Virus record (IMG/VR): IMGVR_UViG_3300036772_000294
Span: 15,824-79,823 of that record
DNA: 64,000 bases
Reading direction: 5' to 3' (one strand)
DNA from: a virus
The position numbers were made by a program, and so were the translations under genes. The notes beneath the pieces were generated by a model. The model saw only the letters and a program-made list of their open reading frames with translations. It was not told where the DNA came from and did no database searches. Positions 14,339 through 58,199 of this stretch are shown piece after piece. The stretch's first letter is position 1; each line of letters starts with the position of its first letter.

Positions 14339-17300
14339 CTAGAAATTATACTTAATACCCAGTGTGGCACTGGTATCACTATACCCTTTATCACCTACCT
14401 GTGTACCGACATTACCCCATAAATTGACACGTGGGTTAATTTGTCCTTCAATGCCCACTTTAACCTCGCCAATATTACGAGCCCCTGCCTGACTGATTCG
14501 TGCTCCGTCCATTGTTGCACTATAGCTACGTGTATTATGCAGCCAGTTCGCTTCAATAAACGGTTCGAACTCTCGCCCTTTTCCTTCATCAATAGCATTG
14601 TGGCTCTTGAGATAAGTCCTTAAGCCAAGGCGCGTTTGAACATTTCCGTCTCCGTCGCTACTGACTCGCGTACCGTTGGCCTCTCTGTGGTCGTCTGCTT
14701 TCACGCCCATCCAAGTTGCTTGTGCTTGAGGTTGAATAAACCATTGGTTCAGAGTTCCATGGCTACCCGAAAACTCCCCCATCTTGAAGGTGTAACCACT
14801 TTCTAATGAAGCAGTGAACCCTTTAGATTTGTAAGATTCTTCAGCAAGTTCCTGTCCGTTCACGTGGTTGTTAAACCAGCTGTACTGGAGCCAGCTATCA
14901 ACATACAAGCCCGCTTTATCAGCATCATTTGCAAACCATGTACCGTAGATGCCTGCGCTGTAACCATTGACGGAACCCTTCGAACTATAATCAGTCACTG
15001 AAGAATGGGTATTATTATGATTATTGCCATAACCAGCCATCAGACCAAGATGACCACGGTCAAGTCCATCTGAAGACCATTGAGCTATATCTCCGCCCAA
15101 TTGTGCAACATAACTATTGCTCTGGGTTTTTAATTGGCTACTACCATCGCGCCAGTTATTATGACTACCGACTTGTCGTAACCACAGGCTGGTGACCTTT
15201 TTTTCACCTGTCAGAGCATCTACGTATTGGGTTTCACCAAGACGGTCATGGAGGGTTGTGTTGAATAGTCTGTTTGCTGCGGCAAGGTTTTCTACGTAAC
15301 TTCCGCCTTCAGGGCGAACATTTGGGTTAACAGGGTCAACAGGATCGACAGGGTCAACAGGGTCAACAGGGTCAACAGGATCGACAGGCTTTGTATTTGT
15401 TAAATACCAGTTGTTGCTATTGCTTCCGGTCCCACGAACCAGAGAATAGTCATAAGCTCCAGCGACTATACGACCAGCCTGTGTAAAAATACCATCAGAT
15501 TTGCCGTTAACATCGATAAGCTCAATACCATTCAGAGTGTAATCACCAGCACCACCGGCATTCGTTACGCTGACAGAGGTGTTTCCTGAAGTATCGCCTG
15601 CGATCACCAGCTTGTCGGTTACAGAGCTATCGTTTCCTAGTGTGGTATTGAACTGTAAATGCCCATTGTCACCGATGTAATTTCCATTCACAGTTAAAGT
15701 GGTACCAGCAACAGGATTATTGTTTGCGTCGTTGTGTCCAATAACAACCGTACCGCTGTTGGTCAATTCTCCAATCTGGTATTGAGATGGCAGTGGTGCG
15801 CCGACTGATGCTCGTGAAACAGCATCATTTTGTCCAAGGTATAATGTTCCCTGGTTATTTACTTTCCCTGTACCGATAGCTTGATTAGCAAGCATTCTAA
15901 CTACACCATCAGAAGCTATAGTGGTATCAACAGACATATCCGAGTTATCGCTACTTATGGTAAGAGTGCCCCCGGTAACGTTAAGACTGCCTTCACCAGT
16001 CATCGCACCGTCAACCTGCCCATTGTTTACTGTCAGAGCCCCTTTGCTAAAATCAAGTGTACTGCCTGACTCAGTGACCAGATTCCTTAATGTTTGGCTG
16101 TAACCATTCATATCCAGATGCGTCCCGTCAGCCAGATTGAGCAAACGAGTGTTGCCCAGTACATCATTGTTTCCCATTTTTAGCCCGCCAGCGGTTACCC
16201 ATGTGGCGCCGGTGTAGCTGTTCCCGCTGTTGGATAATGAAACATCAGTATCTGTATCTATCCTGAGGTCACCATTGCCTACTACCTGAGCACTGAGGTC
16301 TGCTGCATTGCCAGTATTACCGTCTGCCGTTAGTGTTAAAGCATTATCTCCCTGTGCCAACAGCTCAACTTTGGTTAGACCATAATTTATATACAGGCCG
16401 TCACTATTGTCACCGCTTGTAAGACGATAATCATAGGTGCCCTGGGCAACGGTCTCTCCGCCTTGAGTGATATTGTTTACAACAGCATCAGATATTACAT
16501 TACCATTTTGATCTATTAGGTTAAGATCACCGCCGCTACCTGTTATTGTTCCTGTGCTGTCGGCAAGCTTAACCATAACCCCGGCATCATCCTGTTGAAG
16601 TAGAGGACGCGTGCCATCCGGCGCATGAGGTATGTTGTCAAAACTATCGCTGTCAGTAATTTGAATAGACCCTTTGCCAGTTAAGTCTAGGTTCTTACTC
16701 GTCTCTATAAAATTATCACTTGTAGTACTTCCTGGCGAAATATCCCCGAAAACGAGTGTTCCACCATTAAAAGCTAACCCACCGATGTTTTGGGTACCAC
16801 TGCCGACAGTTGTCGTGTTTTCATTTCCAATATGCAGTGTGGCATTTACCAGGGTGGCTGTATTCACGCCATCTAATACAAATTTATTCGTTTCGAGGAG
16901 AACGTCGCCTGAGAATTCATTGCCAACGGAAGATGAAAAATTAAAATCGTTGCCATCATTTTTTGCAGTTAGCTGACCATCGCCAGTAAGTTTATTATCA
17001 AATGAAAATGAATCATTTGTATCTGCAATTAAAGAACCATTTTCGGCAATGTTTATACTACCACTACCAAAATTATCATGGCTATTAGTCGCATTCTGAG
17101 CTGATGTTGCTACACCAACAACATTCCAATTACCGGCGTAGATGCTGTTGTCACTGACGATTTTCGCATCCCCCGAAACGGTTGTGTCGCCACTACCACT
17201 CAGAGTATTGGTGAACTCAGACCCATCAGTATAGGCAATGTCTAAACCTTTAGTTATATCACCAGGGTCAGTATTAACTACCACATCCCCACTTCCCAGT

Positions 17301-43839: not shown

Positions 43840-44868
43840 ATGAAATACGATTCGCTGGAGACTGTTACTGACCGTTTCAGCATTTTCCGTAACGCACGGA
43901 CGACCAGAGAAAATGGACGCAATTACATTATTGTCTCAATTAAGAACACCCTGGCTTCGGAGGCTGTGCAGGAAGGGATACGCCTGGGCGAACTGTTTGG
44001 ATTCTGGGGCCACCAGCGCCGGGAGTTAAACGGCAAGCTGGATGTGCCCGAAGAATCAATCATCATGGTCGACGGCAAACCCGTTCTGACGCAAAACGTA
44101 CCGTCCAACCGCACCGTCAATATTGAAATCGACGACGATGGCGTGATCTCTCATTCGGAGGAAATCCTCAAGACTGACCCCGGTAATATTGTCAGCAGCA
44201 TGATCGCGTCCAGAGCTGGTGGCTGGAGCTGGGCAACCGGCGGCCCGGACACGACCCGCGCCTCAGTGGTTCGACGCTTCAAAGGGTGTGATTACGTTCT
44301 GCAGCCCAACTACATCAGTCTGGACCACCCGGCGATGATGCTGGAGTCCGTGCATGATCGCCACCAGCTAATGCTCGAGTCGTTAAGGAGCAAAGGTTAT
44401 TCTGAGCAGGGAGCTCAAACCATCATCGAGCACTTTGAAGCGATGGGCGACACCCATGAACAGCTGGCCATTGTTCAGGATGATGTTTTGCTGCTTGAGG
44501 GGCTGCTTTCTCATGAACGGAGCCAGTCAGTCGAGATCCGCCTGGCTAACGAAGAGCTTACCCGCCTAAACGGCGAACTCGATGCGCTCCAGCGCAATCG
44601 GGAAATGCTCATGACAGAGGTGCTTCAGCGCATGCCGGTGCATGCTACTGAAGAGCAGCGCGAGGCGTTCCTTAATCCGAAGACGAAGGCAGATGCCGAG
44701 CTGGTGACAATGATGTTTGAATCCATCATGAAGACGGATTTCACGCAGTTGCCGGGTAAACATGCCGGACAATCCCGCGTCTACGTACCGTCACATTTTG
44801 AACAGTCAAAAGTGAAACCATCTCGCGTCGTTACTTTTGGCAATTCTGAAGTGCCGAAGTTTGATTAA
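43840..44868 (+). CDS. pro: head processing protease
   Basis: GH..R, GGWSWA, DYVLQPNY; MLES cleavage-type motifs; follows prt. Confidence 0.88.
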   Translation: MKYDSLETVTDRFSIFRNARTTRENGRNYIIVSIKNTLASEAVQEGIRLGELFGFWGHQRRELNGKLDVPEESIIMVDGKPVLTQNVPSNRTVNIEIDDDGVISHSEEILKTDPGNIVSSMIASRAGGWSWATGGPDTTRASVVRRFKGCDYVLQPNYISLDHPAMMLESVHDRHQLMLESLRSKGYSEQGAQTIIEHFEAMGDTHEQLAIVQDDVLLLEGLLSHERSQSVEIRLANEELTRLNGELDALQRNREMLMTEVLQRMPVHATEEQREAFLNPKTKADAELVTMMFESIMKTDFTQLPGKHAGQSRVYVPSHFEQSKVKPSRVVTFGNSEVPKFD

Positions 44869-45010
44869 TGCTGTTGAGGGCGAGGTAGTCGCTTCGCCCT
44901 TACTCTCCCCATTCGTAACCCCTCTCACACTACGAATATTCACCCATAGCCCACAGCGTGAAATGCCGATAAGATGTTAAGTAACAAGGCAATTATTCCA
45001 GGAGCAAGAA

Positions 45011-45805
45011 ATGGATATTCGAGAATTTCTTCAGGTTTTTAACAACAAAATGACCCCTTCCGTCTACAGATTGGATTATGCAGACGCCCTTAACCATGAC
45101 ATGTATACAACCTATATCGAACCTTATCCGGGTGCATTCCATCTTTTTCAGAGCTATGAAAATGGAGTTGTAAAAACAAAGAAATGGAGTGATTACGACA
45201 ATGACTATTCGACCCATAGCATATTGAAAGCTGACGATCTTAAAGCTGAAAATTTCTCCGGGGCGTATATGTATAAAGCGCACACTCTTTCTTTCTCTTC
45301 ACTCAAAGACCTCTCACCCTGGAAAATTAAGCGGTTCAGGCTAACCGCATCTTTGGATAATTTGGTTGATGGCCGCATTAAGTATGCCAAGCGCAGATTA
45401 CGACAAACAACTCAGGATGGAATGATTATCCTGAATGCTGTGACACAGCGTTATTTAGCTCACGGTGGTGAAGGTGGGGTACACATAGCAGCGATTCTTT
45501 ATGATGTCCGCCCCGTGCTGGATTTTCGCAATGGCAACTGGCCTGCGGTTCAACGGGAAGTTAACCTCATTCTAAACGGCTTCGTTAGCAGCGGCGAGCT
45601 TCGTAAAGGAGATAAATCTACGTATATACCGGAAGGGAAGGCGATTCTGACACAAAATCTCTACCTCAAAGAATTAGATAAATATAAGGAGTCTACTCGG
45701 CTCCAGAGGAAGATGTTTTGGGTTACCTTTTTTGCCGCCATATCAGCACTAGGAAGCGCATTAGCAGCATTAGCGCCATACCTCACAAAATTAATGCATC
45801 AGTGA
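45011..45805 (+). CDS. hypothetical protein with a C-terminal TM (moron)
   Basis: 264 aa; AGGAG SD; hydrophobic C-terminus. Confidence 0.75.
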   Translation: MDIREFLQVFNNKMTPSVYRLDYADALNHDMYTTYIEPYPGAFHLFQSYENGVVKTKKWSDYDNDYSTHSILKADDLKAENFSGAYMYKAHTLSFSSLKDLSPWKIKRFRLTASLDNLVDGRIKYAKRRLRQTTQDGMIILNAVTQRYLAHGGEGGVHIAAILYDVRPVLDFRNGNWPAVQREVNLILNGFVSSGELRKGDKSTYIPEGKAILTQNLYLKELDKYKESTRLQRKMFWVTFFAAISALGSALAALAPYLTKLMHQ

Positions 45806-46045
45806 GCCCTCACTGCGTGTGTCACGTCCAACGCGCATTAATCAGGGGAAGCAGCTTCCCCGCTAGCAACACAAAACTCGCCACCCGGTGCATAAATTAC
45901 ACGGTTCGTAGAGTTAGAAGGTGCCAAAGGTTATTTTATCGGCTAGAATACAAACATATAAACATATTGTCATAAGTAATACTTTTGCACTTGCACAAGT
46001 GACACCTATGCCTCTATGCTAACGTTATGTTTGTAATACTTTCTC

Positions 46046-46693
46046 ATGGAGAGTCAGATGATAACTATCATAGGTTGCAACAAAGGCGGCGCAGCCAAAA
46101 CGACGACCGCTGTTAACGTTGCTGTAGGCCTGGCTTTGCGCGGGCATGACGTTTGCCTTGTCGATGCCGATCCCCAACGCTCTTCTTCACAATGGTATGC
46201 AGACCGCGAAGAGGCCGGAATTAAACCAGCAATCACTCTCATCGAAAAACGCGATAATATTACCCAGACCTTGCGGAATTTAGATGAGAAATATGATCAT
46301 GTTATCGTTGACGTGTCTGGCCGGAACAGCCGGGAATTATTAACGGGTGGTACAGTGGCGCATCAAATTATCGCCCCTCACCAGAGCTCCCAGCTCGATT
46401 TAAACACCCTCGTTGAGCTTCAAAATCAGATGCAAGGCTGGCATGACTTTAACCCTGACCTGAAGGTATTCGTTTATCAGTCAATGGCAACAACCAACCC
46501 AATACTTCAGGGCACCGAGCGCAAGGAGTTTCTGGACTTTGTGGCCGAGTTTGAAGGCATGCAACCACTGGAATCAGTAGCCTGTTACCGCAAGGTGTAC
46601 CGTGATGTCATGTCCGAGGGGAAATCTGTACTCGAAACAACTAACCAGAAAGCGATTAGCGAAGTTACCAGCTTGCTGGATGAGGTATTCTGA
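46046..46693 (+). CDS. parA: type Ib ParA ATPase
   Basis: KGGAAKTT deviant Walker A; VDADPQ; no N-terminal HTH. Confidence 0.92.
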   Translation: MESQMITIIGCNKGGAAKTTTAVNVAVGLALRGHDVCLVDADPQRSSSQWYADREEAGIKPAITLIEKRDNITQTLRNLDEKYDHVIVDVSGRNSRELLTGGTVAHQIIAPHQSSQLDLNTLVELQNQMQGWHDFNPDLKVFVYQSMATTNPILQGTERKEFLDFVAEFEGMQPLESVACYRKVYRDVMSEGKSVLETTNQKAISEVTSLLDEVF

Positions 46694-47010
46694 TGGCACT
46701 AAAAAAACCAAGTCAACGACCGCCGATTACGCCTGAGCAGGCCGATGCCTTTGCCAATCAATTTGCTGATAGACCTTACGCCGGTATAGCGGCAGAAACA
46801 CCCGCTCCCACTCCACCAGCACAGCCAACAAAAGTAGCTAAGGTTGCAGCTGAAGAGAAATTGGTCAGGACGACAATGACAATTCCTCCGGCACTGCTGG
46901 AAAGAACTGAAGATCTGGCGATCAGAAATAAGCGTTCGGGTATTGAGCCTAAAAACGTCAGCGCCATCGTACGTGCAGCCCTGGAAGAGTATCTGGCGAA
47001 GCACGAATAA
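46693..47010 (+). CDS. RHH centromere-binding protein (ParG-like)
   Basis: Flexible N-terminus; VRTTMTIP...NVSAIVRAALEEYL. Confidence 0.82.
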   Translation: MALKKPSQRPPITPEQADAFANQFADRPYAGIAAETPAPTPPAQPTKVAKVAAEEKLVRTTMTIPPALLERTEDLAIRNKRSGIEPKNVSAIVRAALEEYLAKHE

Positions 47011-47100
47011 TAACTCTCTAAGAGAGTGCTACTCAAAAAGACCGGCCACTCCGGTCTTTTTTATTTCAAGAGGTCGGCAGGTTTACTCAACACCGGATAA

Positions 47101-47373
47101 TCACGCCCTGCGAATAAATTTGAACACAAGAGAGTAGCCATTTTTGGTTCTGGGGATTAGGTCTGTTGCTTCGCCGACTTTGAGCTCCTCCCCTCCTGCT
47201 TTTGCTATTTGAGTTGCCCGGAAGGTTGGCGTACATGCCCCTTGACCAAACACTTTGTTAACCTCCCCCGCACTGCTGAAAGTTGCAAATGGGCCTCCGC
47301 TGCTTGCCACTTCAACCGTATACCGTCGCTTCTTCATTTCTGCTGCCAAAATTGGCTCATAAAGATTGGTCAT
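47101..47373 (-). CDS. hypothetical protein
   Basis: 90 aa with AGGGG SD. Confidence 0.55.
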   Translation of the reverse strand: MTNLYEPILAAEMKKRRYTVEVASSGGPFATFSSAGEVNKVFGQGACTPTFRATQIAKAGGEELKVGEATDLIPRTKNGYSLVFKFIRRA

Positions 47374-47569
47374 TTTTTCCCCTGAGTTGAGTTTGTATCA
47401 TCATTCAAAGATGCCTCTCTATGATAGAAAAGATAGTGCTGATATCAAGAAAGGTATTACTTTCATACGGGCATAAATACATACTTTCATACATAACGAA
47501 TGAGGTTGCATACTCAGAAATGACAAAGCCACCCTTACGGTGGCTTTGTTACATCATGTTATGGCAGAA

Positions 47570-47920
47570 CTAAGCGGCTTCGCTGCTACTTTCAGCCTGC
47601 TTGTCTTTCTTTGCCATCATTTCATCTAGTGTGATTATTCTACTGATTTCTTCCTGGGTCCGCGTGTCGTTTTGAACTTCCCATATATCAACATTCGCTT
47701 GTAGATTTAGCCAAAACTCAACACTCGTATCAAACGCTCTTGCGAGCCTAAAGGCCATATCGGTAGTGAGCTTGCAGTTGTTGTTTACAAGTTTACTTAC
47801 GGTATTCCTGTGAACTTGCAGCATCTCTGCAAGCTCATTGATTTTAATGCCGGTCGGCTCAAGGTATTCGTATAACACTACATCACCAACAGACGTGGGT
47901 TTACGTTGTGCCTGGACCAT
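47570..47920 (-). CDS. higA: HigA (VapI-type) antitoxin
   Basis: EYLEP.G....LA..L.V.R..VS.L.N...T.DMA.RLA.AF.TS.EFWLNLQ. Confidence 0.9.
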   Translation of the reverse strand: MVQAQRKPTSVGDVVLYEYLEPTGIKINELAEMLQVHRNTVSKLVNNNCKLTTDMAFRLARAFDTSVEFWLNLQANVDIWEVQNDTRTQEEISRIITLDEMMAKKDKQAESSSEAA

Positions 47921-48114
47921 GTACTTCCTCTCTATAGTATCTTTGTTCAAAACACCCTTGAAAGGGGGTTCTGAAGACAGGCTATCAGCCTCTAGCAAAA
48001 GCCATGCGGCTTTGCGGTTATGCAACCTAATGATGCAGTCGTAGGGACTAGTCATCTGCCTGACAATGCTGCCAGGTCTTTAAGGTCTGGCCCCGCTAAG
48101 GGCCAGACTTTATC

Positions 48115-48429
48115 TTATCTGTGCTTCTTATACCCGTGGTCATCAAGGTACAAGTCACTCGCTTTTCCGTCCTTCCAGATGAAAATCAATCTGTACTGGT
48201 CATTCACCCTTATGGATGAATATTCGCCCAATGGAGGGTTAAGCTCTTCGTAACGATTTGCAGGTGGAGATCGCAAATCTTTGTAGGTCGTTGCTGCGTT
48301 AATCAGGTCAAGCTTTCTGGATAAAACACTATGTATATCAGTTGGAATCTTTTTGTTGTGCTTGGCATACAAGAAAAAGTCCTCGAGCCATGACTCCCTG
48401 AAGCTATCAATGCTTCGCTTTCTATCCAT
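48115..48429 (-). CDS. higB: HigB (RelE-like) toxin
   Basis: DLRSPPANR.E.L....YSIRVNDQYRLIF.W. Confidence 0.9.
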   Translation of the reverse strand: MDRKRSIDSFRESWLEDFFLYAKHNKKIPTDIHSVLSRKLDLINAATTYKDLRSPPANRYEELNPPLGEYSSIRVNDQYRLIFIWKDGKASDLYLDDHGYKKHR

Positions 48430-48789
48430 TCATGACGCCCTTCCTCCTCTGTTATTCGATGCGGTAACTATATCACTGCACACTCGCACTGTGCAAGGGT
48501 GCGAATTGAATAATCGAAACTCGCAGATTCTTTGACTGCTACTGCTTTTACCATAAGTAATACTTTTGCATTTTCCTATAAGCATATATTTGTATTTCTG
48601 CCTTCGATACAGATACCTTTGACCGGCGCTGTGCCAGTCGTTTATGCCCCCTCCTCTCACTCTCAACTGTCCTGAGCATCACCAAAACCCACCGAATATC
48701 ACTATTTACATTAAAATATAACTAATTATATTGCATGGCGATCTAATTTAGTTATAATTCTTCTTGTCATCCAACGCGAGGGAATCGAA

Positions 48790-49053
48790 GTGCCGGAGAT
48801 ATCATGGTCAAAGGCGGCAAGGAAACAGCTTCTCCGCATAGATAGCCGCTACCGCGAGGCAGTTTTTGAAAAGGTTAGCGAGCTAGTGTACTTCCCCGAT
48901 GTGCAACTAGATTTAAAGAAGCTGGAAGGCAGTAAAAAAAAGGAATATCGGGTGAGGGTGGGAGTTTACCGGGTGTTGTTCACTGTGATAGACGGCAACC
49001 CAACAATAATCGAGATTGACGAGGTAGCGCGCAGACAATCAAAAACATACTAA
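48790..49053 (+). CDS. relE: RelE/ParE-family toxin
   Basis: I.WS..A.KQL...KKL.G....YR.RVG.YRVLF. Confidence 0.88.
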   Translation: MPEISWSKAARKQLLRIDSRYREAVFEKVSELVYFPDVQLDLKKLEGSKKKEYRVRVGVYRVLFTVIDGNPTIIEIDEVARRQSKTY

Positions 49054-49155
49054 GGCGAGGCGGGGCAACCCGCCTTCTCCGAGGGATTAGACCAACTAAT
49101 CCCGACCAAAGAAATTAGCCCATCTAATTTCTAATATTTGCGAGAACCCGTGAGA

Positions 49156-49530
49156 ATGAGAAACATACAATTTTTGACCGACGAAAACGGCGCTCGCCAG
49201 TCAGCCGTTATACCGATTGACCTGTTTAACAAACTGATAGCAGCAGCAGACCTGGACGAATTTTATGAGCCTGTGGCATACGTGCCAGGCCCTGACGACG
49301 ACGAAACAATCCCTCATGAAGTATTAGGGTTCCAGATTAAAAAGGGCGTGACCTTACAGGCCGCCTGGCGCATGTATCGTGGTATGTCTCAAGAAGCCGT
49401 AGCAGAAGCGCTCGGCATCTCCCAGGCGGGCGTAGCAAACATGGAGAAGCGCGCAAAACCACAACGCGCAACCCTGGATAAGCTCGCGAAACTGTATGAT
49501 TGCCGCGCTACCCAGCTCATAGACGACTAA
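49156..49530 (+). CDS. XRE-HTH antitoxin
   Basis: IQFL.D..G....AVIP N-terminus; AWR..RG.SQ..VA..LGISQ HTH; follows relE. Confidence 0.85.
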   Translation: MRNIQFLTDENGARQSAVIPIDLFNKLIAAADLDEFYEPVAYVPGPDDDETIPHEVLGFQIKKGVTLQAAWRMYRGMSQEAVAEALGISQAGVANMEKRAKPQRATLDKLAKLYDCRATQLIDD

Positions 49531-49606
49531 AAACACGAAGCCCGCGAAAGCGGGCTTTTTTGTGATACTTGCATAGATACAAAAATAATACTTATGTGCG
49601 TGCTAC

Positions 49607-50302
49607 TTAAAATGATGGAGGAAAGCGTTTAGTCGGATCTTTATGAACGTTGGCAGTTATGGCTTGATTGAAATCATTCACCTGTATAACCCGAAGGTTT
49701 GCGCCAAGCGTCCGAGTCTTGTACGCAACGTAATCGGTATAATTGGCGTAGTTCGGATCGCCGGCAAGTGTCAGCGCCTTGTAGAAAAGCGTATTGACCG
49801 CACGGATATTCATAAGCGCTGGAGGGTTTTCTAAATTCCGCTCAAGCGTGCGAAGGATACCGAATGCCTTGTTAGTGCTACTGGTGATATCAGCTAACGC
49901 TATATACATACTCAAAGCATTCCAAAGCCGCTTCATTATTGGGTCAAAATTCTGAACACGCCCACCAGCGCCAGGGCCTGGGCCTCCACCATTTACTCCG
50001 CCCCGGTTATGTTGCGACAAAGGGTTAAAAATCGGCACCGCATCCTGACCGGAAAGTTCCAACCAATGCTCTGCTATGTCATAGCCGCACAGGAAGCTAC
50101 CAAAGTTACCCGTAGACCTCTCCTTAAACTCAAAGCAGTAATACTCCCTGGTTAATGGCTGGCCGAGGTAATTTTTTTTCTCTTGGTTAGGCAGCAAATA
50201 AATGTGGGATATCGCTTCAACTTCAAAATATTTATGCGCTTCCACCCTCACATCTGGTCCAATTTTGCAGTAAATCTCAGGCCATTTCATATAGTGGGCC
50301 AT
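49607..50302 (-). CDS. hypothetical protein (moron)
   Basis: 231 aa; Gly-rich linker; AAGGG SD. Confidence 0.7.
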   Translation of the reverse strand: MAHYMKWPEIYCKIGPDVRVEAHKYFEVEAISHIYLLPNQEKKNYLGQPLTREYYCFEFKERSTGNFGSFLCGYDIAEHWLELSGQDAVPIFNPLSQHNRGGVNGGGPGPGAGGRVQNFDPIMKRLWNALSMYIALADITSSTNKAFGILRTLERNLENPPALMNIRAVNTLFYKALTLAGDPNYANYTDYVAYKTRTLGANLRVIQVNDFNQAITANVHKDPTKRFPPSF

Positions 50303-50389
50303 ACATTTTTCCCTTATGAATCAATCAATATTGCAATCCATATGAAAATACAAATATATTACATATATAAATAATACTTTTGTATTAAA

Positions 50390-50719
50390 TCAGTTAACTA
50401 CTTCCTGAAACTCATCGATTTCATCGCCCAGGCTGTTCCGGCCAAATTTATACGTAAAGATTCCTGTCTCTCCACTGGAAAGGTCATATTTCCCCTGGCA
50501 TACGAGCTGCTCAATACCGTGCGCTATGGTCTTCTGATCGTAAGCGTCAGTGGCTGATTCATCTTCTCCGTCGAATACGGAATTAAACGACTCCATGAGG
50601 TATCTGCGCGTGTCGACACTGTTGCAATCGACATCGGAGAAATCAATCTTCTGATAAGCAGATGCGGAAGCGCAGAGGGTAAGGGTGATAAACAGGCAAG
50701 CGCTTTTAAGCAGCTTCAT
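50390..50719 (-). CDS. small secreted/periplasmic protein, paralog A
   Basis: Signal peptide ending ASA; 2 Cys; similar to 51842..52192. Confidence 0.75.
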   Translation of the reverse strand: MKLLKSACLFITLTLCASASAYQKIDFSDVDCNSVDTRRYLMESFNSVFDGEDESATDAYDQKTIAHGIEQLVCQGKYDLSSGETGIFTYKFGRNSLGDEIDEFQEVVN

Positions 50720-51039
50720 GGCAATATCCTTATATTGAAAAGCCGTTCCATTGTAAGGTCTTACCACTTCTAAAAACTGGTGTTAGCCCACATTTTTCAT
50801 GTGGTACTTAGGTGCGCAAATAATAATTAATACATATGAAAGTAATACTTTCATATGTATTATCTTTTCTTACATAACGTCCCTGATGCCTGATGTGCTT
50901 TCATCCTGTTCTGTGCAAACCCAACATGACCACATTGACAGCATTAGACGGATACGAGGAGCATTCAATGTGCCTACATAGAATTTCTATCGCATACACT
51001 TCGAATGCTCCTTGCTGGTGAAGCAATTGAAAAAAAACC

Positions 51040-51459
51040 TTAAATGAATAGGTCTGGCCTGACTCCAAATCGTTCTGATAGCGCTTTTACGTGCGCGATG
51101 GTAAGCGACCGGTCACCGGCGAGAATCCGACATACCAGCGACTTAGAGCCAATCTCTTCCTTCAGGTCTGCATATGTTAGCTTATGTTGATCTATCAACA
51201 CTCTCAGTGCGGCAACGCCGGTCGGCATGTCTTCAATAGATTTATTAAATTCAGCAAATCTAGGGCTGGCCCTTTCGTACTCAGCAATTTTGACACTCAG
51301 AAAATCGATTAAGGGGTTGAGGTCATCGTTCTCAATGAGGTAATCAACCATATCCAGGGCATCCCTGTAATCTTTCTCAGTGCTGCTGCCCCCCAGAAGG
51401 GGGACTGCGTTAACTAACTGCCTGGTGGCCTCTAGTGCTTTAGTTGCTTCTCTAATCAT
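51040..51459 (-). CDS. higA: HigA (YgjM-type) antitoxin, orphan
   Basis: NPLIDFL..KI..YE...VA.LR.L.DQ..L...DL..EIGSKS.V..IL.G.R.LT. Confidence 0.88.
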   Translation of the reverse strand: MIREATKALEATRQLVNAVPLLGGSSTEKDYRDALDMVDYLIENDDLNPLIDFLSVKIAEYERASPRFAEFNKSIEDMPTGVAALRVLIDQHKLTYADLKEEIGSKSLVCRILAGDRSLTIAHVKALSERFGVRPDLFI

Positions 51460-51525
51460 TCGTTGTTCTCCCGGCGCTGCCTGGTGATCTTGTCATACTC
51501 TGCGTGGGTAACGATATCCTTCACA
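51456..51525 (-). pseudogene. C-terminal remnant of the cognate HigB toxin
   Basis: VKDIVTHAEYDKITRQRRENNE* overlaps the higA start (ATGA). Confidence 0.78.
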
Positions 51526-51597
51526 TGTGTGTAGACATAAAACCCCCGTTAAGCAAAGGCTACGGGGTTATTGTGATCATTTGAAGGGGAAAGGTAG

Positions 51598-51777
51598 CTA
51601 GTCCGGGTTGCTGAAATGCGCAGAGCGTAAAATGACCATTTCCTGTTTGCACAACATAGTTACTGCCACTCGAGCCCTCACTCTATTGCTCGTAAAGTAG
51701 CGTTTAACTTCCTGGCGCTTTGCGCCTGCCTTCAACATCTCCCGCCCACGAAGAGAGAGGCTATTGCAATTGGCCAT
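51598..51777 (-). CDS. small basic hypothetical protein
   Basis: AAGGA SD; followed by a hairpin. Confidence 0.55.
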   Translation of the reverse strand: MANCNSLSLRGREMLKAGAKRQEVKRYFTSNRVRARVAVTMLCKQEMVILRSAHFSNPD

Positions 51778-51841
51778 CTTGAAATCCTTCACAACTGCAT
51801 AAGTAATACTTACGACAATTCATACTTACGAAAACACATAC

Positions 51842-52192
51842 TTACCATTCAGAACTGATAACTTTCAGGTTCTTAAATGAGGTGATTGGTTCGCCAACAC
51901 TGTTGAGCTGGTATTCATACGTGTATTCAACTACTTGACTAGTTGAAAGCAGATATTTCCCCACACAGATGAACTTATCAACACCGCGCCCCAGCGTTTT
52001 CTGGTCATACGCATCAACCGCCCTGTACGCTTTGTCACGGAATACGTAATTAAAGCCTGCCATGAGCATTTTACGCGTCTGTATCTCGTTACAGTCCATA
52101 TTGCTGAAGTCCATTTGCTCAGCTGAGTGGGCTATGGAGGTCCCGGCAAGTAGCATCCCTAAGCCAAGAGACAGAGCCTTTAAACGATTCAT
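51842..52192 (-). CDS. small secreted/periplasmic protein, paralog B
   Basis: Signal peptide; DFS..DCN...TR..LM..FN.VF...DAYDQKT shared with paralog A. Confidence 0.75.
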   Translation of the reverse strand: MNRLKALSLGLGMLLAGTSIAHSAEQMDFSNMDCNEIQTRKMLMAGFNYVFRDKAYRAVDAYDQKTLGRGVDKFICVGKYLLSTSQVVEYTYEYQLNSVGEPITSFKNLKVISSEW

Positions 52193-52435
52193 AGAATTGC
52201 CTGAAAATGAGATTTATGCGCGCAAGTATAACGACTTAAGGAAAGGGGTAAATTGCCATATCTCATAAAATTTATGGGTCGGGGAGGGCGCCCACCTCAA
52301 TAAGTATTACTTACGCTTGTAATATGTTTGCATGTGCGCAATTTCGTACTTATGGGCTAACGCTGGTAGACGGCCCGGGATCGCAATCAACACCCTTCGC
52401 GTTTTTGTGTGTAAAATACCCCCTCTCCCAAATAA

Positions 52436-52517
52436 TGGTCGGCTGTACGGGGGAGCCATCAGGCTCGCCGGTTTGCTTGAGTGTCCGGTTGTTGCAACCT
52501 CGCACAGCTGACCACCA
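52436..52517 (+). ncRNA. C4-like antisense RNA copy 1 (a' loop UUGUUGCAA)
   Basis: Closing stem TGGTCGGCTGT/ACAGCTGACCA, GAGCC hairpin, CCGG-b'-CCGG, 3' CCA. Confidence 0.8.
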
Positions 52518-52523
52518 GCAATT

Positions 52524-52605
52524 ATGGCGGGAAGAGTAGGGGAGCTTAATCGCTCGCCGGTTTGCTTGAGTTTCAGGTAGTCTCAACCCTTCTTTTCCTG
52601 CCACC
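52524..52605 (+). ncRNA. C4-like antisense RNA copy 2 (a' loop UAGUCUCAA)
   Basis: Closing stem TGGCGGGAAGAG/CTTTTCCTGCCA with compensatory changes, GAGC hairpin, CCGG-b'-CAGG. Confidence 0.75.
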
Positions 52606-52770
52606 CTCTTAAAATCCATACACATTGTATTGACGACACATTGTCTGAAACTGTATGGTTTAAATGCTGCCGCAAAATCGGTGGTCGGGTTTCGCACCCC
52701 GTGACCTATTCAAGCGCATAAACCGCGCCAGCGGTTTTTTTATGTGTAAAATACAGCTACACCCAAATTA

Positions 52771-52850
52771 TGGTGGGCTGGATGGGGCAACCGAAAGGTT
52801 GGCCGGGTCTTGAGTAGCCGGTAGTGCGAACCCTGTTCAGCTCACCACCA
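52771..52850 (+). ncRNA. c4: cognate C4 antisense RNA (immI)
   Basis: Cloverleaf-like fold; a' GTGCGAA matches TTCGCAC near 52690 and 52859; b' TCTTGAGTAG matches CTACTCAAGA 52889-52898. Confidence 0.88.
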
Positions 52851-52909
52851 GTCTGAGTTTCGCACCTCTTTGGTGGTGATAATATTCACTACTCAAGAGG
52901 CTGCCATTC

Positions 52910-53209
52910 ATGGCTACTACCCCTGCTGTTCTTCACCTCAAAGAAACATCGATGTTAGCCGTGCTTTTGTCCGGTATACAGCCAGAAACCGCGCTGTATT
53001 TCGCTGAGCAAGGCCGCTATGAAGTCGATGACCTGACGACCGAACCCAATACACCTTCCCTGGACGATCCCGCTTATCCGGCTTTCATAACGGAGCATTT
53101 GCTACGTCTGTTGCCTGGCGAAGTTGCGGAAGCGACCGATGACCAGCTCCGCCTGCATAACGAGATTATGCTGCTGGTGGCCGTTCATAGTGGATGGTGG
53201 GCAAACTAA
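52910..53209 (+). CDS. icd: Icd-like protein (first gene of the C4-controlled operon)
   Basis: MATTP N-terminus; SD overlaps the b2 target. Confidence 0.6.
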   Translation: MATTPAVLHLKETSMLAVLLSGIQPETALYFAEQGRYEVDDLTTEPNTPSLDDPAYPAFITEHLLRLLPGEVAEATDDQLRLHNEIMLLVAVHSGWWAN

Positions 53210-53617
53210 ATGAACGATGTTTCGGACGAGCATATTGAGGCCTGGCTGGACAGCATCGATGTATCGCGCAGGCTTAAGCGCTTTACGACGTATGCAGGTT
53301 TAATCCGGGCCATGCTGTGCTTTTTCGATAGCCATGGGGCACTACAATTCGGGACATCAAGTCTTTCGGGGTACGGGTATTCCCGGCAGCGGGTACACAA
53401 TTACTTTGCCAATGCGGAGGAAATAATACTGGTAACGGCTGCGTGCTTACGTAGTTCCGGCACAAGGAACCAAAGTTATCAGGACATCATTGCGCTGAGC
53501 GAAAACCTTCAGCGCAATGAACCTGGGAGACGACTTAGATTCCTGCTCAGCTACCCAAAAGCATGTACAGATTATGTTCAAATCAGACGGGATGCGGTGA
53601 CACACTGTCTCAACTAA
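53210..53617 (+). CDS. TetR-like-HTH protein in the antirepressor position
   Basis: Coupled to icd; GYSRQRVHNYFANAEEII; paralog of 32918..33298. Confidence 0.72.
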   Translation: MNDVSDEHIEAWLDSIDVSRRLKRFTTYAGLIRAMLCFFDSHGALQFGTSSLSGYGYSRQRVHNYFANAEEIILVTAACLRSSGTRNQSYQDIIALSENLQRNEPGRRLRFLLSYPKACTDYVQIRRDAVTHCLN

Positions 53618-53620
53618 CGC

Positions 53621-53643
53621 TTATCCTAAACTTGTAATTTATT
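53621..53643 (+). promoter_or_regulatory. 23-bp operator motif upstream of repL (Op53 equivalent)
   Basis: TTATCCTAAACTTGTAATTTATT. Confidence 0.78.
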
Positions 53644-53907
53644 ACAGTATTGATCATGTGAATGATCACACGTAGGATCATCTGCACGAAAACGACGCGC
53701 TTGCGCCCTTAAACAACGAAAAAAGCCACCCGGAAGGTGGCCTTAATCGGAGACAGAACATGTAAACATGAACAGCTTCACGGTGTGTTTTGTTCACAGC
53801 AAAAACACCGAAATTGTTGCGACTATTTTCCGAAGGAGGATTTAGTCATTGATGCCAGATTCCATAGGAATGATGGACCAATTTCCTATTACCAAAAAGG
53901 ATAGGAC

Positions 53908-54855
53908 GTGCATATTATCGCCAAAAATAATCCGTTTATCAAGAAGAACGGACACATAACCAGCAACGGATTTGAAGAAATATTTCGCCAGCTGCCGCCC
54001 TCGATTCTTGCCCGGTCTGCTCGCTCGCTGATGCTTAGCCTGGCCGATACCTTTGCCTGGAATTCTGACCACAAAATCTGGTTCTCACTCGATACGATTG
54101 CTCAGAAGGGGGCTTGTAGCCGCTCAACGGCGCGCCGAAATCTCGACCTGGCGATTCGTAGCGGCGTGCTAACCCGTACCGAAGTGCGTAAAGAGAACAA
54201 CGCACAGAGCACAAACGAGTACCAGTTAACGCCAGAATTTATTGGGATGGCCAGAGCTATCTGTCTGGAGTTAGCCAAAGGAATTAAGTCTGCAGCTCTC
54301 ACAGCAAAACTTGCGCCTGAGTTCGAGAAGTTCATGCTGTCGCTGCGCTCAGGCATTAAATCGGGTGTCCGAATCGTGGACGTCATTATGAAGAAAAAAG
54401 CCATACGAAACGGCAATTTACCTGATAAAGGGGGGTGTCAAAATGCCACGGAGGGGGGGTGTCAAATTGATACCCAATACCTTGAAGTTCTCTTTGATGC
54501 CCAGAAGATTAAAAGATCCGTTGCCAGCGCTCCCGCTGCCATCCGGTCAGGGTTAAAACTTTTCAAAGAGGCCAAAGCCGAGCGCGCATCAACGAAAGCG
54601 AAAGACCGCGCCGAAGTGCTGGGCGAGCGTCAAAAGAAAAAGGCTGGTCTACTGAAATACTTCAGGGGGAAGCCGGTCGTTACACCAGCGTTCAACTCCA
54701 GACGGCTAACGTCAGAGGGTGAGCTTGCGGATCAGCGGTTTGATGAAGCGCGCAATGCGCACCTGGCGGCCCTGGCAAAGGGGCACGGTGACGCCGGCAA
54801 AGCTGCTATCCTAAAACACTTCGGTCGCAAGTGTGCGGCCGCAGTAAATTCGTGA
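53908..54855 (+). CDS. repL: lytic replication initiator RepL-like
   Basis: wHTH (SLDTIA....CSRSTARR..D.....G.L), NEY.L motif, internal GGGGGGTGTCAAA direct repeats near 54430-54466; P1 position after immI. Confidence 0.72.
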   Translation: MHIIAKNNPFIKKNGHITSNGFEEIFRQLPPSILARSARSLMLSLADTFAWNSDHKIWFSLDTIAQKGACSRSTARRNLDLAIRSGVLTRTEVRKENNAQSTNEYQLTPEFIGMARAICLELAKGIKSAALTAKLAPEFEKFMLSLRSGIKSGVRIVDVIMKKKAIRNGNLPDKGGCQNATEGGCQIDTQYLEVLFDAQKIKRSVASAPAAIRSGLKLFKEAKAERASTKAKDRAEVLGERQKKKAGLLKYFRGKPVVTPAFNSRRLTSEGELADQRFDEARNAHLAALAKGHGDAGKAAILKHFGRKCAAAVNS

Positions 54856-57373: not shown

Positions 57374-57694
57374 TTGTCCGGGATGTTGCTCATGTATGAC
57401 CGTGTTTTAAATAATTGCATGTTCGATCAATACAACAATCACTGTAACGCACAGCAAAACTACCCATGCGAAGCCTTTATCAAGGATGGGACCATGACAG
57501 TGAGCTATAAACATTGGAAAAACGGCAAACAGTATGTCTACAGAGGCATCAAGACAGAAGCAGGATACTGGGACCTGAAAACGAAGTCAGATCCCGACGC
57601 GTGGGCTACGCTACACGAAGACCTGCCAGGCTCATTCACAGGCCGCTGGCATGACGGGAATGAATTCGGGGCCTGGGTGCTGAAATACGAATAA
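57374..57694 (+). CDS. hypothetical protein
   Basis: Trp/Gly-rich ORF; start uncertain. Confidence 0.55.
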   Translation: MSGMLLMYDRVLNNCMFDQYNNHCNAQQNYPCEAFIKDGTMTVSYKHWKNGKQYVYRGIKTEAGYWDLKTKSDPDAWATLHEDLPGSFTGRWHDGNEFGAWVLKYE

Positions 57695-57724
57695 AAAAAG
57701 CCGCCCCGTAGGGCGGCTCTCTCG

Positions 57725-57844
57725 CTACTTGCCTGAGACGTTGATCGTCACATTCAGCGAATTGTGAGTGAATTTCCACCCTTCGCCAGATGTAGAGAAC
57801 AAGGCCCCAGAAACAACGAGCAATACACATAGGTATTGTTTCAT
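57725..57844 (-). CDS. timP: TimP-like type I toxin MKQYLCVLLVVSGALFSTSGEGWKFTHNSLNVTINVSGK
   Basis: 39 aa; C-V-x-x-x-VSG-x-L and NS-x-x-VT-x-NV match recalled Salmonella TimP; terminator follows the stop. Confidence 0.72.
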   Translation of the reverse strand: MKQYLCVLLVVSGALFSTSGEGWKFTHNSLNVTINVSGK

Positions 57845-58199
57845 TGGAACGGTTCTTATTAGAAAACCGCTGTTTTACTGCTACCACCGGCGATAGAAAT
57901 AAAACTACAAGCACTCGTACGTGCCTGCGTGTACGGCATTAGAAAATCCTTTTCAGAAACCGGTGCCTGTGTGCGAGACAGCGAAAAGGTCCTCAGTTGT
58001 CATGATACCCGATAAATAATACGTTGTATGGTAAGGTATTTAGAAGATAGGCGGGTGTCTAAGTTGTGTCATAATTTGCTAGCAAAAAACAAGAAAAGAC
58101 TGTATGAATAACCAGTTTGTAAAAAGTGATGCCAGCAAAAAAACCACAAGCTGTGGTGAAACCTTTTGACAGAACTCTCTTGACGGGTAAAATTAAACT

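Follow-up and report, generated by a model that had tools for sequence, protein, structure and literature searches.

A C4-type switch determines if a temperate phage remains silent, and immunity groups are defined by the loop sequences of such switches. Polycistronic tRNA precursors and the P4 CI immunity RNA are both matured by RNase P, which resolves head-to-tail units with short spacers in tRNA operons; the CI RNA acts by transcription termination at seqA/seqC, unlike systems in which a ribosome-binding site is occluded. In the Gifsy-1 isrK-orf45-anrP module of Salmonella, a short terminated RNA, IsrK, acts in trans on the read-through mRNA and enables translation of orf45-anrP, in which a short ORF is coupled to an antirepressor (Hershko-Shalev et al. 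2016, PMC4825925). Here, we describe a C4 region on a virus record of IMG/VR, IMGVR_UViG_3300036772_000294, of which positions 15,824 to 79,823 were analysed (the window, meaning the full stretch of 64,000 nucleotides). The element is, judging by its encoded proteins, a divergent P1-like phage-plasmid, and an earlier reading of its letters (the original prediction) had proposed an array of C4 RNAs with different loops.

That prediction started from the premise that specificity resides in a few loop bases, which was borne out by aligning the immI regions of P1 (L379:900-1180), P7 (L399), D6 (L400) and SJ46 (L401). The c4 scaffold was invariant, and the a' and b' loops were exchangeable in four combinations, a' being common to P1 and D6 and to P7 and SJ46, and b' to D6 and SJ46. 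Each combination had matching changes in its a1, b1, a2 and b2 sites. Scaffold, a' and b' behave as separate, exchangeable modules, in the window as in these four phages.

Three C4 RNAs in one control region

Judging by its sequence, the region is an immI-type control region with one complete and internally consistent C4 switch, formed by the cognate copy C4-3. Two further copies, C4-1 and C4-2 (the orphans), lay head to tail upstream of the operon promoter, 9 nucleotides (nt) apart, and no a/b target pair for either was found in the window, the contig or the 78%-complete genome. We hold with roughly even confidence that the orphans are relics or neutral by-products of cassette recombination, which would make them repressor-only C4 genes. 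The three copies and their loops are as follows.

52437-52516, plus strand: orphan C4-1, predicted mature RNA of ~80 nt, ends placed by analogy with the annotated P1 c4
52472-52484 and 52490-52497, plus strand: C4-1 loops b' UUUGCUUGAGUGU and a' UGUUGCAA
52517-52525, plus strand: 9-nt spacer AGCAAUUAU between C4-1 and C4-2, from predicted 3' end to predicted RNase P site
52526-52605, plus strand: orphan C4-2, predicted ~80 nt, a weakened copy
52561-52573 and 52579-52586, plus strand: C4-2 loops b' UUUGCUUGAGUUU and a' AGUCUCAA
52772-52849, plus strand: cognate C4-3, predicted ~78 nt
52807-52817 and 52823-52830, plus strand: C4-3 loops b' GUCUUGAGUAG and a' AGUGCGAA

Scanning with Rfam cmscan at the gathering threshold, which is 45 bits for the C4 family RF01695, returned three matches on the plus strand, at 52766-52852 (75.5 bits, E 6e-13), 52431-52519 (70.9 bits) and 52520-52608 (57.8 bits), all above that score. 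Our own covariance model, R1, built from 27 C4 genes, scored C4-1, C4-2 and C4-3 at 86.7, 64.5 and 87.1 bits. All three had the C4 architecture of a closing stem (P1) around hairpins P2 and P3, with b' in the P3 loop, followed by a single-stranded a'. The three C4 matches that the original prediction expected were thus obtained, with coordinates within a few bases. It had further noted stems that differ in sequence yet still pair, and the compensatory changes were upheld: among the four C4 genes of the genome, 96.3% of cells were paired and both sides had changed in 10 of 27 pairs, a level reached by 0 of 500 shuffles, while slid controls paired at 31-52%. Because the Rfam and R1 matches agreed and covariation lay far above the controls, the observation was confirmed, compensatory stems included.

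The three copies differed in condition. C4-3 had no bad pair under R1. C4-1 had one non-canonical pair under R1, and its minimum free energy fold was canonical. C4-2 had one non-canonical pair under R1 in each of P1, P2 and P3, and its minimum free energy fold paired b' with a', hiding both loops; from its sequence, this copy looks partly decayed.

The cognate switch

The arrangement that defines a C4 switch in cis, with a' and b' complementary to downstream a2 and b2 sites and b2 placed on a ribosome-binding site, was found for C4-3 only. Its parts are listed below.

52630-52659, plus strand: predicted sigma-70-like promoter of the cognate operon (TTGACG, 18 nt, TATGGT; 9/12 in a consensus scan)
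52653-52745, plus strand: IsrK/c4-a1b1 leader with intrinsic terminator (Rfam and terminator scan)
52691-52697, plus strand: a1, TTCGCAC, matching C4-3 a'
52706-52715, plus strand: b1, CTATTCAAGC, a partial match to C4-3 b'
52720-52737 with T-run to 52745, plus strand: stem and tail of the terminator
52859-52865, plus strand: a2, TTCGCAC, a 7-nt match to C4-3 a'
52889-52898, plus strand: b2, CTACTCAAGA, a 10-nt match to C4-3 b', overlapping the Shine-Dalgarno (SD) sequence AAGAGG (52895-52900) of the ATG at 52910
52910-53209 and 53210-53617, plus strand: orf99 and orf135, the regulated operon (open reading frame (ORF) list)

The promoter was located downstream of C4-2 and immediately ahead of the IsrK-like RNA of the leader, a position also seen in other cassettes. 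An isrK match (RF01394, 67.6 bits, 52666-52741) lay between C4-2 and C4-3, and the sole addition from a permissive scan of 51500-53500 was a c4-a1b1 match (RF03163, 52653-52705) that, at 32.1 bits, was below the cut-off. The computed C4-3 duplexes reached -10.0 kcal/mol for a' with a1 or a2, -14.3 for b' with b2 and -11.0 for b' with b1. The predicted match of the C4-3 loops to flanking targets overlapping the SD sequence was accordingly found for a1, a2 and b2, and in part for b1.

Transcription from the promoter would yield a short, terminated IsrK/a1b1 decoy RNA, and read-through would yield C4-3, whose a' and b' would pair with a2 and b2 and occlude the ribosome-binding site of orf99. Translation of orf135 is probably coupled to that of orf99, as the orf99 stop and the orf135 start abut (TAAATG). 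Neither ORF had a Pfam, PHROG or NCBIfam match, and Atlas leads were uninformative; orf135 matched only itself among 5.8 billion protein clusters, and orf99 had no tblastn match in phages or plasmids. Neither was similar to the P1 immI region, with its icd, ant1 and ant2 genes, or to the ORFs of other cassettes. The two ORFans occupy the place that icd/ant-type genes hold in other cassettes, and by analogy they may form an antirepressor operon.

Context and processing of the orphan pair

Three C4 matches stood against one a1b1/isrK leader and one good promoter, both downstream of C4-2. The orphans had no a1b1 hairpins, no terminator between or after them, no a2 or b2 and no gene to control; the sole leader, at 52653-52745, belonged to C4-3. 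One further feature lay directly before C4-1.

52396-52436, plus strand: short leader of C4-1 (T-tract, GTGTGTAAAATAC, CCCAAATAAT), homologous to 52731-52771 before C4-3

The two leaders were identical at 29 of 41 positions, and only the last ~41 nt had been kept. The original prediction had described a shortened copy of the immI leader; the homology was real and the copy carried no intact target sites, but it was short, extending no further than the T-tract. Upstream of it, similarity of 52200-52399 to the cognate promoter and leader was not significant (local score 14, shuffle mean 15.4). A degenerate promoter with an a1 hairpin at 52320-52400 was considered and found no support, the upstream similarity being no better than in shuffles. 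The only promoter candidate upstream of the orphans was a weak 9/12 consensus match inside the start of the divergent gene, and a C1 operator of the P1 type was not recognised beside the array.

The 5' context of the orphans, AAUUAU/GG (the slash marking the cut), and the 9-nt spacer resembled the P1 c4 maturation site, and the UUAU/GG cleavage context and the CCACC tail were conserved relative to P1. The dicistron of C4-1 and C4-2 folded as two separate C4 modules (z = -4.5). The spacer, cleavage context and two-module fold make the earlier suggestion that RNase P cuts both copies from one precursor sound by analogy: if the orphans were read through from upstream, RNase P would release them as it does the units of polycistronic tRNA precursors. 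No RNA runs holding the array stretch were listed.

Targets of the orphan loops

A genome scan that required ribosome-binding-site context recovered both true C4-3 sites and, apart from the orphans' own antisense strand, none for the orphans, and a loose thermodynamic duplex scan of the contig gave only noise. The orphan a' loops paired with the resident a1/a2 at -3 to -6.5 kcal/mol (cognate -10.0). The b' loops of C4-1 and C4-2 paired with the resident b1 at -11.7 and -10.4 kcal/mol and with b2 at -10.3 and -9.0 kcal/mol. Neither orphan thus had the two downstream sites of a cis switch, and the original prediction was upheld, in the window and in the genome, in that the orphan a' loops differ from the cognate one and have no a/b pair nearby.

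Beyond this genome, that prediction proposed a search for natural leaders joining TTGCAAC or TTGAGAC to a matching b site, and none turned up: no cassette in IMG/VR or in the species genomes (one genome for each of 185,579 species) joined either a site to the b site ACTCAAG(C). Target scans anchored on the C4 3' end gave 25 matches in IMG/VR and 16 in genomes, none adjoining a C4, and two broad IMG/VR scans gave only chance matches among the matches listed. Where a natural cassette had the right a site (32 cassettes), the orphan b' loops paired with medians of -6.6 to -8.2 kcal/mol, against -12 to -13.9 for the cognate loops. The L063 type was the exception: codons 3-5 of its first gene contain ACUCAAGU, which paired with C4-2 b' at -11.6 kcal/mol, equal to that type's own b'/b2; this match, 1 in 29, may be due to chance. 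In the L063 cassette (L063:5559-5651), a2 is a perfect fit to C4-2, and identical cassettes occur at L078, L084, L094, L100, L112, L115 and L116.

Origin of the loops

The a' of C4-2, GGUAGUCUCAAC, was shared by ~36 distinct C4 genes of IMG/VR, and four had the a' of C4-1, GGUUGUUGCAAC. In nearly all of these genes, an a2 fitting the gene's a' (GATTGAGACC or GATTGCAACC) was accompanied by a b2 fitting its b', so the orphan a' types are specificity classes that are naturally in use. The orphan b', UUUGCUUGAGUNU, was not encountered in any other C4 of IMG/VR, the species genomes or the Joint Genome Institute (JGI) metagenomes. A 17-mer scan of IMG/VR gave 7 matches, none of them a C4, and the pattern GCCGGTTTGCTTGAGTNNCNGGT gave 0 matches in the species genomes and 5 chance matches in the metagenomes; a looser b' pattern in 400 genomes recovered one unrelated C4. 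The nearest b' class was from E. coli, with b' UUUCCUUGAGCG against b2 GCUCAAGGAGG. Comparison of the orphan b' UUUGCUUGAG with this nearest natural class, UUUCCUUGAG against b2 CUCAAGGAGG, indicated that the orphan anti-SD core carries G.

Pairwise comparison of the copies pointed to exchange of parts. The P1 stems of C4-1 and C4-3 were 76% identical; those of C4-1 and C4-2 were only 47% identical, against 92% in the b' loop. By sequence, the copies in the window are mosaics, C4-1 resembling C4-3 in leader and closing stem and C4-2 in b'.

The element and its host

The window is part of an 80.9-kb contig in a metagenome-assembled enterobacterial genome (78% complete, 324 contigs). Family searches of its proteins identified a DarB-like protein of 2295 residues, PmgS-like and PacA/PacB-like proteins, a P1-type tail, a Rep3 initiator and ParA, and it is on these that the assignment to a distant relative of P1 is based. 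At the DNA level, megablast and blastn found no match to the C4 region in phages, plasmids or 5,426 complete E. coli genomes. The host is probably Escherichia, because a cassette on another contig, holding the fourth C4 of the genome, was 98.5% identical to several E. coli chromosomes. This C4 (G000:C198:16071-16157, equal to L003:1501-1587) belongs to a complete cassette with a' AAGACCAA, followed by a Ner-like gene, and similar cassettes were present in 2,630 of the 5,426 complete E. coli genomes.

Two Logan assemblies of soil-metagenome runs, filed under two studies and possibly the source sample, carried the 1.3-kb array stretch with zero differences, in contigs of ~34 kb and at word depths of 96 and 50. 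Elsewhere in the window, 57693-57994 (minus strand) gave a full-length Rfam ryfA match of 162 bits, on a phage-plasmid and not on a chromosome. Relatives of orf315 (53908-54855) occurred only in two Enterobacter P1-like plasmids, at 32-34% identity, directly 3' of the portal and head-processing genes (one plasmid being L024, Enterobacter kobei NZ_CP156932.1). In the window, ~9 kb (44868-53908) separates the portal and head-processing genes from orf315 and holds ParA, helix-turn-helix regulators and the C4 region.

Interpretation of the orphans

The sequence itself shows how the copies fold, which sites are present and that targets for the orphans are missing from the data searched; their transcription, processing and relic status, and the direction of the recombination events, are inferred. 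The orphans would have arisen by the modular recombination typical of C4 cassettes and would persist as repressor-only remnants with no present target in the element or the host, C4-1 intact and C4-2 decaying. In favour of this reading count the single leader and single good promoter, the missing a/b pairs, the worn state of C4-2, the G in the anti-SD core, a b' seen in no other C4, the mosaic make-up of the copies, the reshuffling of a' and b' in the P1 family and the single orphan C4 genes at other loci. Any benefit would be conditional and would arise if an incoming relative happened to match in both its a and its b site, so that its leader gene was silenced. Even as relics, the orphans would still record a change of immunity specificity.

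Several observations weigh against relic status. C4-1 was intact and scored like cognate copies, and both the spacing of 9 nt and the preserved RNase P context seem favourable to processing. The a' loops were letter-perfect copies of natural ones, which is more readily explained by selection or recent acquisition than by prolonged drift. A block of 20 nt covering b' was identical in C4-1 (52463-52482) and C4-2 (52552-52571), and this block was an outlier: among 68 comparably divergent pairs, the median loop identity was 0.40 and the next best 0.67. No other feature of the sequence hints as strongly at selection for a shared b target or, alternatively, at gene conversion between the neighbouring copies. 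Furthermore, no close relatives of the phage lineage were found in any collection searched, and a phage with matching a and b sites could therefore simply be unsampled.

These observations bear most directly on a second explanation, a working multi-specificity array, than which relic status is slightly more likely. The orphans would be transcribed from the divergent intergenic region, cut by RNase P and act in trans on incoming phages of their own lineage in which the b module is the same and the a site is TTGCAAC or TTGAGAC; the operons of these phages would be silenced and the resident protected. We regard this as a tentative possibility, clearly short of even confidence. The exchange of a' and b' among P1, P7, D6 and SJ46 shows that specificity in the P1 family is modular, and together with the CUUGAGU b' core present in all three copies, this means that the three a' types fit an array directed at several types. 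The outlying b' block, the natural currency of the a' loops, the canonical fold of C4-1 and the two-module fold of the dicistron are all consistent with it, and the orphan b' loops pair with the resident b1 and b2 to an extent similar to that of the annotated P1 sites of 7-8 bp. A selective rationale is provided by antirepressors that act in trans and cross-induce other prophages, which have been documented (PMC3121763).

However, an array of this kind had no two-site natural target in IMG/VR or the species-representative genomes, and its b' paired poorly on the 32 natural cassettes with the right a site, where the single exception could be chance. It also lacked a consensus promoter upstream and homology to the cognate promoter; each of the three helices of C4-2 was weakened, and its loops can become hidden; and the orphan b' has lost the anti-SD CC. 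The narrower proposal that the orphans form a processed, polycistronic, repressor-only array that widens RNA immunity to the other immI types of its own lineage, with one b module and different a modules, is likewise a tentative possibility well short of even confidence. It would amount to superimmunity against heteroimmune relatives whose antirepressor-type operons could induce or displace the resident, and on this reading the shared b' block would be kept by selection on a common b site. Of the RNA-guided multi-specificity cassette first proposed, the anatomy and the family assignment stood, and the function was not shown: its main checkable prediction, a natural target, failed, the b' was unique, no credible promoter preceded the pair and C4-2 looked partly decayed. 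Nothing found bore on P4-like satellites as targets. The term guide-RNA array was overstated for one intact and one weakened orphan. If an array were nonetheless at work, it would offer an RNA-only route to wider superinfection immunity and resistance to cross-induction by the antirepressors of neighbours, and a natural example of programmable antisense arrays processed by RNase P.

A third explanation, which we consider improbable, is that the orphans modulate the resident switch, their b' alone binding the decoy b1 or the mRNA b2 with no need for a' pairing, and so tuning the amount of free decoy or partly masking the ribosome-binding site. The C4-1 b'/b1 duplex (-11.7 kcal/mol) at least matched the cognate one (-11.0), and the orphan b'/b2 duplexes reached -10.3 and -9.0 against -14.3 kcal/mol for the cognate. 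The action of Gifsy-1 IsrK in trans indicates that decoy titration is a real control point in such switches (PMC4825925). Against this, the orphan a' loops did not pair with a1/a2 (-3 to -6.5 against -10.0 kcal/mol), there was no comparative support, and both contacts appear to matter, since a' and b' always co-vary with their sites in the P1 family.

An assembly artefact, with tandem copies produced by chimeric assembly of strain variants, is very unlikely: the genome is metagenome-assembled, fragmented and incomplete, but the two Logan assemblies, which may come from the source sample, carried the stretch unchanged and copies only 47-76% identical in their stems are too different to be collapsed or expanded repeats. 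Repressor-only remnants of recombined cassettes remain our preferred account of the orphans.

Comparison with known systems

The two orphans were never found side by side in phages, plasmids or the 5,426 E. coli genomes, where only single C4 cassettes occurred, and DNA searches covering the family (400 genomes) and the genus (15 genomes) were likewise negative. No other head-to-tail C4 pair was present among the matches listed for ~210 Enterobacteriaceae genomes (61 + 151, strict filters) or among 82 matches in IMG/VR loci, and a limited literature search found no description of c4 genes in tandem, stacked or orphan arrangement.

Control regions with more than one C4 gene are not rare, as complete cassettes lay 330-660 nt apart in L048:4670-5424/L086 and L049:2913-3559/L092. 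The stacked loci L049 and L092 are P1-like, and each stacked C4 has its own sites and small ORFs. Other unusual C4 genes were also observed. A weak extra (orphan) C4 lay upstream of a complete cassette at L068:13663-14085. A 95-kb P1-like contig (IMGVR_UViG_2600254917_000001) held a single orphan C4 (L025:9791-9885) with the a' of C4-1 and a different b', placed after a terminator-like hairpin and without a downstream a2 or b2; elsewhere on this contig, a complete cassette (L109) has the C4-2 type of a'. At L052:311-405, a C4 was truncated, the 3' arm of its closing stem being replaced by unrelated sequence, and at L374:1300-1750 (minus strand), a C4 with b' UACUUGAGUAGA had a matching b1 and no obvious b2 before the start codon.

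The window resembles these stacked cassettes in carrying several C4s with different loops in one control region, P1-like hosts included. In the stacked loci, however, every C4 comes with its own promoter, leader, a2/b2 and gene, as the criterion of stacked orthogonal cassettes implies (own leader, sites and gene for each C4, true for L048 and L049), whereas C4-1 and C4-2 are bare and 9 nt apart.

With the immI regions of P1, P7, D6 and SJ46, the window shares the RNA family, the a1/b1 leader and, for C4-3, a predicted processed antisense RNA of ~77-80 nt. As in the P1 family, the b2 of C4-3 overlaps the ribosome-binding site of the first gene, which is short and probably coupled to the second, and a divergent gene lies upstream. 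Unlike these four phages, which have one c4 each in the stretch compared, the window has two extra, site-less C4 copies before the promoter, and its regulated genes are not homologues of icd or ant, unlike those of P1 immI (Oc4, P2c4/P1c4, icd, ant1/2).

The cognate part of the region also resembles the Gifsy-1 module, with an isrK match and a terminator and the same logic of promoter, short RNA, read-through and coupled ORFs, and it differs from Gifsy-1, for which one module is described, in its extra target-less C4-type RNAs (PMC4825925). Finally, the orphans share with tRNA precursors and the P4 CI RNA a mimic of the tRNA acceptor stem, a 3' CCACC tail and a head-to-tail arrangement of units, and by analogy the pair may be processed as those precursors are.

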